Positions 23,632 to 25,898 of a stretch of 64,000 nucleotides of DNA are shown here, piece by piece; positions within the stretch are counted from its first letter, which is position 1; every line of letters starts with the position of its first letter. The stretch is taken from the NCBI RefSeq assembly GCF_016903815.1, contig NZ_CP069973.1, one strand, 5' to 3'. A program made the translations under genes and the position numbers. The DNA is from Escherichia coli. GTDB taxonomy: Bacteria > Pseudomonadota > Gammaproteobacteria > Enterobacterales > Enterobacteriaceae. Below the pieces are notes generated by a model. That model did no database searches, was not told the origin of the DNA, and saw only the letters and a list, made by a program, of their open reading frames with translations.

Positions 23632-23799
23632 CGAATATTAACGAGTCACTGTAAATTGCAGTACGATAATGGCTTCCAGCACTGGAAGCCATTTTGCATG
23701 AGTGCCAGATTGAAGCTGATCTTCAGGAGCAGAAATAACCGAATCGTTTTTTTCGCAAAACACAGTTTTGAGTGATTCCGTTCAGTAATCAACGCTACG

Positions 23800-24060
23800 T
23801 TATTTATTCTCACGTTGCACGAGATTGTATCCCTTTTCACTAACGTGGTAGTGAGGCATAGACTTATTCCCGCTATCCTCAATAATAACCAAACCTTCGT
23901 TAGCTAATTTGTTAACAATGTTAACAACATTCCCGAATCCTGGAATTTGCCTTATGGATAGTGTGCGATCGAGATTCATCCAGTTCCAGTTTATATCTTT
24001 CTCAGTCATAACGTTCAGCACGTTAAGTTCATTTTTAGTGATCACGATATTCTGTACCAA
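23800..24060 (-). CDS. small winged-helix-like protein, paralogue 2; candidate immunity protein
   Basis: 86 aa; roughly 55-60% identical by eye to the neighbouring 85-aa ORF (shared IPGFGNV..NIV.KL...GLV core); AT-rich island. Confidence 0.55.
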   Translation of the reverse strand: MVQNIVITKNELNVLNVMTEKDINWNWMNLDRTLSIRQIPGFGNVVNIVNKLANEGLVIIEDSGNKSMPHYHVSEKGYNLVQRENK

Positions 24061-24119
24061 AATTGATGAGTATCTTATTGAAAGATCACAATGTAAATCA
24101 TGCTCCTGTAATGGCTGGA

Positions 24120-24377
24120 TCAGAAGAGGTTGTCTTGTTGTTCTTTGATAAGATTCAATCCATATTGAGAAACTCTGTAGCGTGGTCTAGAGTTGCCCTC
24201 ACCATTTACGATATCAACCAACCCATGATTAACCAGCTTTGTTACGATATTCGCTACGTTGCCAAATCCTGGAATATTTCGTATAGCTAAAGTACGATCC
24301 AGCACCATCCAGCTCCAGTCAATATCTTTCTCAGCCATAACTTTCAGCACGTTAAATTCAACTATCGTAATCGTCAT
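24120..24377 (-). CDS. small winged-helix-like protein, paralogue 1; candidate cognate immunity protein
   Basis: 85 aa; start overlaps the stop of the Hcp-extension gene (ATGA), implying translational coupling. Confidence 0.55.
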   Translation of the reverse strand: MTITIVEFNVLKVMAEKDIDWSWMVLDRTLAIRNIPGFGNVANIVTKLVNHGLVDIVNGEGNSRPRYRVSQYGLNLIKEQQDNLF

Positions 24378-25507
24378 TTTGTTGCATCCGGATGAAATAA
24401 GTCAGTATCTTTAATTTTAAAGTCTTCTAGAGTTGCAGTATGTACATTATTCCATAATTCATATCCATCTAAACCTTTCGGTTCACCTGTTTCCCATCCT
24501 AAATTACAATAACGCTGATACTCGCGACATTCATGAGTATAGTAGTTCAGATCGTATTTTTCAGGAAGCAATTCTTTATTTGCTATTTTCTTTAGCCTTG
24601 AAATCATTACATCATTAGCTGGATCATGATCAAATCTGGAGATATGCTTTTCAACAATAGCGATACCTTCCCTGTTGATTGTTACGCCATCTATCGTCAG
24701 GTTTTCAATTGGACCACCGGCAAGGTCGGGATTAAATGGTCTTCCTGATACTGCTCCTCTGGCTCCGAAATGCTCAAGTGATTCCAAATCAGGGAATCTC
24801 ATTCTTCCCAGAACAACTCCAGCAACTATTGAAGCACCAGCGATGAGTAACCCTTTGTTATCCATAACTTGATCGTAACCAGCAGGTGCATCTCCTCCCA
24901 ACTTGTTTGCTGTTTCCCTGAATCCTTCGATATTCCCATTGTATATGCCGCCAGCAGCAAGCAGTCTGCCAACCGCTTTACTATTGAGTGTTTTGAGGCC
25001 ATTATCATCTTTAGTTTTTGGCCGTGGTATAAACAGACGGTTGTAGTTATCGGGAAATGCCAAATAACTAAATTCAGTATTAGCAATCAGATGCCTGGAG
25101 AGTATATATTCATAACTGACAGTGATGGTTTCTGTATCCAGATTGTTCTCAGTAAACAGGTGATTGATTGCTGATAAGAGCGCGCCGCGAAGTTGAATGT
25201 TGTAATATTTCTCCCATCGACCAAATCTATTGATCCGATAGAAGTCAAACTCCATGAACAACTGCTCGTTATTGTTAATAGCGTTAATAAGTAACGGGGA
25301 GCTTTTGTCAATCAATTTACAGAAACTAAGGCCATGCAATTGTGACCCTTTGCCTGTATTCGTAATACTATTAGAGAGCGAGAACGCGAAGATTTCATCT
25401 TCATGGCCAATCTGCCAGCGATTACCTATTGATGCGCTCGTTCCACAACGAGAGGAAATACATCCTTGTTGTTCTCCGGTTATGTTCAGGTAAATAATAT
25501 CACTCAT
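24374..25507 (-). CDS. Hcp (T6SS tube protein) fused to a C-terminal extension: candidate 'extended Hcp' toxin
   Basis: 377 aa; N-terminal ~150 aa aligns by eye to Hcp (IYLNITGEQQG ~ IKGESKD; FCKLIDKSSPLL ~ FTKYIDKSTPNL; FYRIN ~ WYKIN); ~220-aa extension with a Gly/Ala-rich hydrophobic stretch and an unassigned C-terminal domain. Confidence 0.75.
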   Translation of the reverse strand: MSDIIYLNITGEQQGCISSRCGTSASIGNRWQIGHEDEIFAFSLSNSITNTGKGSQLHGLSFCKLIDKSSPLLINAINNNEQLFMEFDFYRINRFGRWEKYYNIQLRGALLSAINHLFTENNLDTETITVSYEYILSRHLIANTEFSYLAFPDNYNRLFIPRPKTKDDNGLKTLNSKAVGRLLAAGGIYNGNIEGFRETANKLGGDAPAGYDQVMDNKGLLIAGASIVAGVVLGRMRFPDLESLEHFGARGAVSGRPFNPDLAGGPIENLTIDGVTINREGIAIVEKHISRFDHDPANDVMISRLKKIANKELLPEKYDLNYYTHECREYQRYCNLGWETGEPKGLDGYELWNNVHTATLEDFKIKDTDLFHPDATK

Positions 25508-25898
25508 CCTTGAAAAACCTTTTGTTAATTCTTTTGTGAAAGAAAAATAGTATTGTTATTTTTTACCTTTATTTACGCCTAAAAGGGATGAACTAAAATG
25601 TGAAAAACAAAATGTTTCACTTTAATATCTTTTTATCAGGAAGGTCTGAGATAATTTATAATTAATGTGAATGTGTTGATAATAATTAATGTTTGTTTGA
25701 GAATGGGAGTTGATGGTAAATCTCTAAGGTGTCTGCCAGTGAAGAGACTCACTTATGACTATTACTTGCCGACTTTCTTAAGGTCAAATAGCGGAGTCGT
25801 GCTCTCCAATCAATTCATACTGATTATTTTTTGGGGGACAGAGATGGCAGCAAAACGCACTCGTTCACTCACCATCTCAAATATAGACTAAGAGGAAA

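Follow-up and report, generated by a model that had tools for sequence, protein, structure and literature searches.

The specialised Hcp effectors (Hcp-ETs) of the Enterobacteriaceae have been divided into five clans by Ma et al. (2017), namely ET1 with an HNH-DNase, ET2 with DUF2235/Tle1, ET3 with 'Pyocin S3', ET4 with a Colicin-DNase and ET5 with a papain-like domain (PMC6099711). Another group of described toxins consists of the bacteriocins pyocin G (PyoG), pyocin SX2, carocin D and carocin S3, for which toxicity and immunity were shown experimentally (PMC7322526, PMC10422930, PMC7461348). Here an island in a 64,000-nucleotide stretch of the Escherichia coli contig NZ_CP069973.1 (hereafter the window) is described. 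It encodes a 377-amino-acid (aa) Hcp-ET, whose C-terminal toxin domain (CTD, residues 248-377) very probably belongs to the pyocin G/SX2/carocin D family, as judged from indirect evidence, and, downstream of it, two small proteins, Imm1 and Imm2 (Table 1).

Nanomolar concentrations of pyocin G or SX2 suffice to kill, and each of the two is neutralised by its own immunity protein (PMC7322526, PMC10422930). Killing by PyoG needs FtsH and the domain for translocation across the inner membrane (IMT domain), which points to a cytoplasmic target (PMC7322526, PMC9040868). The killing domains of PyoG and carocin D are homologous, and the PyoG domain is homologous to that of no other pyocin (PMC7322526). 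The SX2 domain was described as 'pyocin G-like' and homologous to carocin D and S3, and its predicted fold, according to the same authors, is unlike any solved bacteriocin domain (PMC10422930). The complex of PyoG with its immunity protein ImG was still an AlphaFold3 model as of January 2026 (PMC12927319). These bacteriocins are in development as protein antibiotics; their killing mode is disputed and their structure is unsolved.

The window protein has the construction of an Hcp-ET: an N-terminal Hcp domain is followed by an extension of 230 aa (more than 60 aa) with a toxin domain homologous to bacteriocin killing domains, and immunity genes are adjacent. With the known Hcp-ETs, including Usp (UTI89_C0121), it shares the Hcp domain, a linker with a hydrophobic segment, a variable C-terminal toxin, downstream immunity gene(s) and the location on an orphan island outside a T6SS (type VI secretion system) cluster. 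The difference lies in the CTD, which is found in none of the five clans and matches no Pfam family; it would represent a further clan. Pyocin S3, the name given to the toxin of ET3, has no Pfam model; the PyoG paper describes the PyoG domain as unlike that of any other pyocin (PMC7322526). As a sixth Hcp-ET toxin type, it would connect T6SS biology with the pyocin G/SX2/carocin D bacteriocins; no link between an Hcp-ET CTD and the pyocin G family was found in the literature searched. The locus is also a textbook polymorphic-toxin island: the CTD is swapped among Rhs, PAAR, Hcp, WXG100 and bacteriocin scaffolds, allele divergence is confined to the toxin tip, the extra immunity gene matches another allele, and there is no essential difference from the polymorphic toxins of the Rhs, PAAR and WXG100/LXG types. 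For specialists such a construction is ordinary, but the toxin family occurs widely and has no structural match, and its mechanism is disputed.

The C-terminal toxin domain and its relatives

The CTD shares 48% identity with the killing end of a bacteriocin encoded on an E. coli ColE1-type plasmid (E 3e-33), and the same value was obtained against the end of a Pseudomonas aeruginosa pyocin at the pys2 locus beside toxA (E 2e-32), with the invariant residues kept in both. In gene position and N-terminus the latter presumably corresponds to pyocin S2. Its immunity protein, of 85 aa, ends in FVTEKKYGIV, and exactly the residues ...EKKYGIV are encoded by the published reverse primer for ImSX2, the immunity gene of SX2 (PMC10422930). 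The forward primer for ImSX2 encodes MLDLEG (PMC10422930), with which the immunity proteins beside CTD genes begin at two of the loci retrieved from other genomes (L057, L068; these loci are numbered with the prefix L). The assignment to the pyocin G/SX2/carocin D family is made because of the two 48% identities, the primer-encoded immunity termini and the statements of the papers. As in carocin S3, a small immunity gene lies directly downstream with an ATGA overlap. Delivery differs: here it would proceed through fusion to Hcp and the T6SS, whereas pyocin G, SX2 and the carocins (with ImG, ImSX2, CaroDI and CaroS3I as immunity proteins) rely on domains for receptor binding and IMT and on a TonB box. 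Classical colicin operons with the CTD are found on small plasmids of the ColE1 type in E. coli (6995 bp) and in Klebsiella (5783 bp): a bacteriocin of about 750 aa ends in the CTD, the gene that comes next encodes about 90 aa, and a lysis gene is also present. An earlier note on this DNA, made from its letters alone, had likened the extension to a colicin-type module with small soluble immunity proteins. This comparison was borne out, as the same CTD is the killing domain of S-type pyocins and of colicin/klebicin-like operons on ColE1 plasmids.

The extension seen by that note at 24377-25060 corresponds to residues 150-377 of the 377-aa open reading frame (ORF), and the elements listed for it (LAAGGIYNGNIEG, GGDAPAG, GLLIAGASIVAGVVLG, EKHISRFDHDPANDVMISRLKK and YYTHECREYQRYCNLGWETGEP) are all present. 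A terminal domain of about 110 aa had been proposed. A folded C-terminal domain is indeed predicted, with a size of about 130 aa, including a conserved extended N-terminal stretch, FGARGxxSGRxFxPxxAGGPI, for which the predicted local distance difference test (pLDDT) score is 96-98. The AlphaFold2 (AF2) model of the CTD, built on 70 diverse relatives, has a mean pLDDT of 92.1 and a predicted template modelling (pTM) score of 0.85, and is all-helical apart from the ordered, strand-like N-terminal segment. Its helices span residues 279-289, 296-309, 317-335 and 346-362 of the full protein.

Eight residues of the CTD are invariant, namely H288, R304, D319, H325, E326, E329, W352 and H356. The set of invariant and near-invariant positions comprises these together with G251, S254, R256, G264, R291, F292, Y323, R332, Y333 and E361. 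Five arginines are highly conserved; R304 is invariant, and R256, R291, R328 and R332 are conserved at 89-99%. In the predicted model the invariant residues sit on helices 1, 3 and 4, and a continuous polar stripe runs along helix 3 (D319, Y323, H325, E326, E329, R332 and Y333). The two cysteines, which the earlier note had counted among the conserved residues, are not conserved; most members have Leu and Arg at these positions. The resemblance of the CTD motifs to those of hemerythrin/HHE (H...HxxxE...HxxxxD), the HD domain, MazG (ExxE...ExxD) and the zincins (HExxH) is taken here as a set of leads only, with no profile or fold support.

The nuclease colicins and pyocins (ColE9/E7 HNH DNase, ColE3 rRNase, ColD/ColE5 tRNases, pyocin S3 non-HNH DNase) likewise have a C-terminal cytotoxic module of about 130 aa that acts in the cytoplasm and is neutralised by an ~85-aa immunity protein. 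In the bacteriocins of the CTD family the likeness goes further, as the CTD follows an IMT domain and killing is FtsH-dependent. In contrast, the CTD resembles the HNH, E3, D and E5 domains in neither sequence nor fold, and the family is acidic, with a median isoelectric point (pI) of 5.3 and 82% of 159 members below 7. The domains of nuclease colicins are basic, and their immunity proteins are acidic.

Searches with the CTD yielded 462 representatives of 50%-identity clusters at E <=1e-3, and 339 at E <=1e-10. The domain is almost always located at the extreme C-terminus (a median of 3 residues follow it), in proteins of about 100 to 5214 aa. Its carriers are Rhs/YD-repeat, PAAR, Hcp and WXG100 proteins (the last in an actinobacterial metagenome-assembled genome) and, above all, S-type pyocins and colicin-like bacteriocins. 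Hosts are found in the Enterobacterales, Pseudomonas, Burkholderiales, many cyanobacteria, Planctomycetota, Bacteroidota, Acidobacteriota and Actinomycetota. Pyocin_S (PF06958) was detected in 20 of the 43 full-length relatives scanned, and the Pyocin_S/IMT domain is taken to belong to the bacteriocin scaffold and not to the toxin domain as such. In cyanobacteria the CTD occurs as a stand-alone ORF of 136 aa (Microcoleus vaginatus, L031 3992..4402; likewise in L026-L034). Its partner is a 160-aa protein (L031 4399..4884), in which the winged-helix immunity domain is joined to a HicB-like antitoxin domain (PF15919, E 5.9e-12). The cyanobacterial CTD and this immunity-HicB fusion form a two-gene, toxin-antitoxin-like module.

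The Pfam scans covered the whole protein, 70 CTDs and the 43 full-length relatives, and in none of them was the CTD matched. No match outside Hcp was obtained for the 377-aa protein at E up to 10, and no family, HNH included, in any of the 70 CTD relatives at E up to 0.001. The earlier note had seen no HNH, lipase or amidase motif in this region, which agrees with these scans. The CTD was also unmatched in NCBIfam, PADLOC and PHROGs (where only the linker is matched), and sequence and profile searches of the PDB returned nothing below E 0.99. Remote-homology and structure-prediction searches, proposed by that note as a check, thus gave the 462 representatives and a confident AF2 model, and no library or PDB match. 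The suggestion of a new toxin domain holds for the Pfam-A, NCBIfam and PDB collections searched, from which the domain is absent, but not for the literature, where it would already have been described in pyocin G, SX2, carocin D and carocin S3. For this wide family with no model in Pfam-A or NCBIfam, the invariant residues, the two immunity families and the range of carriers provide handles on mechanism.

Several identities were considered for the CTD and rejected. An HNH or colicin-DNase endonuclease is contradicted by the absence of HNH Pfam matches among 70 members at E up to 0.001, the absence of a PDB match and the all-helical model. T6EC4, a Citrobacter Hcp effector (Geller et al. 2024), is Tox-REase-5-like and carries another domain. 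The colicin D/carocin S2 tRNase is a different domain, with nothing below E 0.99 in the PDB profile search; for the catalytic domain of colicin D a structure has been solved. A pore-former was rejected in view of the single 16-residue hydrophobic segment in a shared linker, the lack of a hairpin in the toxin and the soluble winged-helix immunity proteins.

Some database names in this family look misleading. Fragments with the CTD or the linker are labelled 'HNH endonuclease' or 'colicin', names that probably come from the linker shared with HNH-bearing Hcp-ETs. The plasmid bacteriocin is named 'colicin-like bacteriocin tRNase domain-containing protein', probably from its N-terminal Cloacin domain, and the names 'Colicin-D' and 'klebicin D' on matches in AFDB probably reflect N-terminal regions. 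The P. aeruginosa locus (L086 1312..3704, NZ_CP131792.1) is in a record labelled as an 846-kb plasmid that bears chromosomal genes such as toxA. Its pyocin ends in the CTD rather than in an HNH DNase domain. Downstream lie the 85-aa immunity gene, a gene with a colicin-immunity domain, fragments of pyocin S6-type toxins and an S6 immunity gene, which together make up a graveyard of exchanged killing modules.

Immunity genes and toxin alleles

The start of the Imm1 gene overlaps the stop codon of the toxin gene (ATGA). Of 79 loci from other genomes, 65 have an ORF whose start lies no more than a few bases from the toxin stop, and an iterative search identified 41 of these 65 as homologous to Imm1. 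The setting varies across phyla: the CTD gene in front of such an ORF may encode an Rhs, PAAR or WXG100 protein or a stand-alone toxin. The family profile of Imm1 matches PadR/MarR-type winged-helix structures in the PDB (best E 8.6e-6), which is why databases use the name 'MarR family regulator'. Imm1 also weakly matched the ribosomal protein uS4 in its S4 domain (E 0.017), but this match disappeared when the family profile was used, and the PadR/MarR winged helix was found instead. Imm1 and Imm2 have grand averages of hydropathy (GRAVY) of -0.02 and -0.38, respectively, and the immunity proteins are near neutral in pI. Inspection of the two sequences, with no dedicated predictor run, showed no stretch hydrophobic enough to resemble a signal peptide or a transmembrane segment.

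The immunity genes of the CTD family encode proteins of 85-96 aa (85-90 aa in the individually examined loci); the immunity protein of pyocin S3 has 153 aa. Next to the bacteriocin-type members stands a second immunity family, also of 85-96 aa, whose proteins have KGPNWKEPKF(V/M)TEKKYG as their conserved end (L048, L052 and L057-L081; L082 3851..4123; L084 2412..2675). The iterative search seeded with the window immunity protein did not retrieve it. The window proteins thus differ from those of the bacteriocin relatives in that they belong to the winged-helix 'group 1' and not to the KGPNWKEPKF...KKYG family.

Imm1 and Imm2 are 59% identical. A sister hcp-ET allele occurs in E. coli that produces Shiga toxin (STEC), in O145:H28 (RM12761, L087 1521..2904) and in O121. 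It is 89% identical overall to the window protein and near-identical up to about residue 287, and the last 90 residues diverge, which probably places the specificity determinants in helices 2-4 of the CTD. The sister allele has a single immunity gene (L087 1524..1766), whose product matches Imm2 at 71 of 81 aligned positions (~88%, counted by eye) and Imm1 at 59%. Because this sole immunity gene matches Imm2 over Imm1, Imm2 is read as an orphan immunity protein that probably cross-protects against the sister allele. The arrangement of alleles and orphan immunity genes predicts strain-level incompatibility groups within E. coli.

Proposed mode of action and competing explanations

In the explanation favoured here, which is considered probable as a whole, the window protein is an Hcp-ET with a cytoplasmic, metal-dependent hydrolase of the pyocin G type that blocks gene expression and is accompanied by translationally coupled immunity. 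It would be a T6SS effector in which a Hcp tube subunit is connected to a toxin domain of 130 residues by a spacer of low model confidence and a conserved linker of helices, one of them hydrophobic. The toxin would act as an enzyme in the cytoplasm of the target cell. A cytoplasmic target is assumed because the 136-aa cyanobacterial toxins stand alone beside immunity-HicB fusions and because the immunity proteins show no signal-peptide-like stretch. H288 on helix 1, D319, H325, E326, E329 and R332 on helix 3, and H356 and E361 on helix 4 most likely form a metal-dependent hydrolytic site; judging from conservation and the AF2 model, the polar stripe on helix 3 is as expected for a site that holds a metal and a phosphate-bearing substrate. 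Gene expression would be blocked, most probably through cleavage of RNA or another phosphoester of the transcription-translation machinery and not through bulk degradation of DNA. SX2 reduces coupled in vitro transcription-translation by 50% in a dose-dependent manner (PMC10422930). The coupled winged-helix protein of 85 aa would bind the toxin and protect the producer, its paralogue would guard against the sister toxin allele of other E. coli, and the hydrophobic segment of the linker would have its role in packaging or delivery and none in killing. The sequence analysis itself demonstrates the domain architecture, the membership of the CTD in its family, the synteny of toxin and immunity genes and the structure of the alleles. 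From the papers on other family members we carry over that the toxin kills, that immunity neutralises it, that FtsH is needed and that protein synthesis is inhibited, while for the window protein itself we infer the catalytic residues, the dependence on a metal and on a T6SS, the substrate and the role of the linker. Roughly divided by mechanism, action on RNA or translation is plausible if short of probable, DNase action is unlikely, action on a substrate other than nucleic acid is slightly more so, and the rest is left unallocated.

DNase action would make the CTD a metal-dependent enzyme as in carocin D and S3, which kills by chromosome degradation like the HNH-type Hcp-ET1 and Usp. Both carocins were reported to have DNase activity in vitro, blocked by the immunity protein (PMC10422930, PMC7461348); in the bacteriocins the CTD comes after the IMT domain, whose association with nucleases is strong (PMC9040868) and which is seen as Pyocin_S in nearly half of the relatives scanned; and a metal site could be made up of the invariant His, Glu and Asp. 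However, immunity-free SX2 did not nick plasmid DNA with Mg, Zn or Ni, while the HNH pyocin SX1 did so in the same assay (PMC10422930). The family is acidic, no ββα-Me, PD-(D/E)xK or other nuclease signature or fold was found in the CTD, and the 'H-N-H endonuclease' label that the carocin S3 paper gives to domain III-B is unsupported by sequence. The acidity of the toxin, together with the near-neutral immunity proteins, speaks for a cytoplasmic enzyme of a new catalytic class and helical fold that hydrolyses a nucleotide or cofactor, or that cleaves or modifies a protein of the translation apparatus. The same can be said of the partial, dose-dependent inhibition by SX2 at no DNase activity (PMC10422930), and of the lack of a PDB fold match for the CTD. 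The motif H325-E326-x-x-E329, on one helix, resembles the zincin HExxH, and H...HxxxE...HxxxxE resembles the metal sites of helical bundles. Yet no profile or fold supports any such family, the five conserved arginines would equally fit binding of a phosphate backbone, and up to now it is nucleases that have been found together with IMT domains (PMC9040868).

The earlier note had also considered a membrane-active mechanism through the hydrophobic segment. The glycine-zipper-like helix would then insert into the inner membrane and dissipate the potential, with the terminal domain as an accessory. Residues 219-234 do give the highest hydropathy of the protein (1.69 over 19 residues), are predicted to be helical and have small-xxx-small spacing. 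The segment, however, has just 16 residues and belongs to a linker that is common to Hcp-ETs with papain-like or other toxins and to non-Hcp carriers. The CTD family is toxic in contexts that lack the segment, the CTD occurring without it in pyocins, Rhs proteins and the stand-alone cyanobacterial toxins. Its partners are soluble winged-helix proteins, not membrane immunity proteins, and conservation is concentrated in the polar, catalytic-type residues of the CTD. Membrane action is considered very improbable. Hardly credible is a reading that takes the downstream genes for regulators of the MarR type and the extension for an appendage with a structural or regulatory role, and no toxicity, on an orphan Hcp. 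In its favour, 'MarR family transcriptional regulator' is the database name of the 85-aa proteins, whose profile has PadR/MarR winged-helix structures among its matches. Against it, they are single domains of 85 aa, shorter than the matched regulator chains of 98-207 residues in the PDB, they show the ATGA coupling, and their place behind a CTD gene recurs across phyla, be it a gene for an Rhs, PAAR or WXG100 protein or for a stand-alone toxin. Immunity function has been shown for family members in the papers (PMC10422930, PMC7322526, PMC7461348), and an allele-matched orphan copy is typical of immunity genes.

Several observations weigh against the favoured explanation, the metal-dependent hydrolase that blocks gene expression. 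Besides the DNase activity reported for the carocins, which contradicts a reading as an RNA or translation toxin, no T6SS cluster was found within the 64-kb window, and Pfam detected no Pyocin_S/IMT domain (PF06958) in the 377-aa protein. The CTD has no fold counterpart in the PDB and no profile or fold likeness to a nuclease or metallohydrolase. The acidity of the family weakens models with nucleic-acid binding and leaves room for a protein or a small molecule as substrate. The two immunity families are at best distant kin (hhalign probability 37%). The link to the bacteriocins is indirect and goes through the P. aeruginosa homologue, the primer-encoded termini and the statements of the papers.

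More tentatively, the four-helix CTD with its invariant H/D/HExxE/H residues could represent a structurally new enzyme class with no solved counterpart. It would be neither of the classical colicin nuclease types nor a DNA-degrading enzyme, and might be a metallohydrolase that targets RNA, nucleotides or a translation factor. It would have spread from cyanobacterial two-gene modules to weapons of the T6SS, the type VII secretion system (T7SS-type, fused to WXG100), Rhs and bacteriocin kinds. If this were true, the E. coli Hcp-ET would offer a genetically tractable member for solving the mechanism.

Carrier domain, linker and island

The Hcp fold, placed before the extension by the earlier note, was confirmed. 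Residues 1-147 match TIGR03344 (E 2.8e-36; 124.9 bits against a cut-off of 58.9), Pfam T6SS_HCP (PF05638) matches residues 6-135, and Hcp chains from the PDB match residues 2-145 only. The full-length AF2 model was used for linker and CTD only, since the Hcp part was modelled poorly because the alignment is shallow there. Its pLDDT is below 50 at residues 138-174.

The linker (residues ~171-236) matches PHROG 31266 and PHROG 14497 at E ~1e-15, both with no function given. Helices are predicted with modest confidence at 176-184, 193-203, 207-216 and 220-232; the last lies within the hydrophobic segment GLLIAGASIVAGVVLG, the most hydrophobic 19-residue Kyte-Doolittle window of the protein, and has a pLDDT of about 50-64. 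The linker module also precedes unrelated toxins, follows N-terminal carriers other than Hcp and is found in fragments that run on into further unrelated C-termini; the hydrophobic character of the segment is retained in other Hcp-ETs. Because the linker is common to Hcp effectors with other toxins, the segment appears to be part of a shared delivery or pre-toxin module and not a killing element. It may, for example, insert into the membrane and so help the toxin across the inner one, or it may pack into the Hcp tube or onto it.

One example of the shared linker is a Hcp-ET of Salmonella enterica subsp. houtenae (L085 2051..3489), adjoining the ryhB RNA gene, which has the same Hcp and linker and another C-terminus. 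By eye only, with no profile confirmation, this C-terminus is papain-like, and a 92-aa gene lies downstream. The record gives Usp (UTI89_C0121) as its KEGG relative and is filed among 'phages', though it is a 582-kb chromosomal contig. In other genomes linker and CTD are fused to two unannotated N-terminal modules in place of Hcp. One, of about 140 aa and starting with MLHHYQAKS..., occurs in Lonsdalea, Pantoea, Enterobacter and Phytobacter (L003 3386..4432, L004 3356..4432, L006, L008). The other, of about 170 aa and starting with MFTLY..W..ERELAP (L005 3335..4432, L009 310..1452), occurs in Enterobacter chuandaensis, where it adjoins fadE, and in Citrobacter freundii, where the protein is a 'DUF8093 domain-containing protein' in AFDB; one fragment has PF26362. 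Both modules may be secretion or loading domains that have gone unrecognised.

The low-GC island of 2.3 kb is chromosomal and inserted between metE and ysgA, as seen from the gene list and the RefSeq flanks, with metR and metE on the left and ysgA, udp and rmuC on the right. According to the composition profile its G+C content is 35-46%, against about 50-59% in the flanks. It contains three genes, all on the minus strand, encoding the ORFs of 377, 85 and 86 aa. Coordinates are collected in Table 1.

Table 1. Coordinates in the window of the island, its genes and the parts of the effector protein
Feature	Coordinates	Strand	Evidence
hcp-ET gene, 377-aa specialised Hcp effector	24374..25507 (stop codon 24374..24376)	-	ORF list, WP_001521777.1
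Hcp/TssD tube-protein domain, residues 1-147	25067..25507	-	TIGR03344, PF05638, PDB Hcp chains
Low-confidence spacer, residues 148-174, probably disordered	24986..25066	-	full-length AF2, pLDDT <50 at 138-174
Conserved Hcp-ET linker (pre-toxin) module, residues ~171-236, short helices predicted	24800..24997	-	PHROG 31266, 14497
Hydrophobic Gly/Ala-rich segment GLLIAGASIVAGVVLG, residues 219-234	24806..24853	-	top Kyte-Doolittle window
C-terminal toxin domain (CTD), residues 248-377	24377..24766	-	462 representatives, conservation, AF2
Immunity gene 1 (Imm1), 85 aa, winged-helix, presumed cognate	24120..24377	-	ATGA overlap, synteny
Immunity gene 2 (Imm2), 86 aa, Imm1 paralogue	23800..24060	-	59% identity to Imm1
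Low-GC island	23632..25898	.	composition profile, flanking genes

Genome comparison showed that most E. coli genomes lack the island. The toxin end and both small genes are present in 806-848 of 5426 complete E. coli genomes (~15%), where they are annotated as 'tube protein TssD' with 'hypothetical' or 'MarR' neighbours. Carriers include strains of extraintestinal pathogenic and avian pathogenic E. coli (ExPEC/APEC), e.g. 536 and IMT5155. RefSeq gives 'tssD' and two hypothetical proteins at the identical locus, with the effector as WP_001521777.1, and the identical 377-aa protein belongs to a 90%-identity cluster with 1511 members. The 377-aa ORF is not due to chance, because of the size of this cluster, its presence in 806-848 of the 5426 genomes and the same three genes in RefSeq. 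A scan for promoters and terminators gave consensus-level matches only and nothing decisive.

For UTI89 and APEC O1 the gene is represented in AFDB only by proteins of 229 aa and 163 aa, respectively. In several genomes with an otherwise 100% identical island, an insertion sequence, IS1 or IS3, lies between hcp-ET and ysgA, just upstream of the effector gene. An example is E. coli WP4-S17-ESBL-08 (L001 5007..5704), and another is hit H15; in the window this site is free of an insertion sequence.

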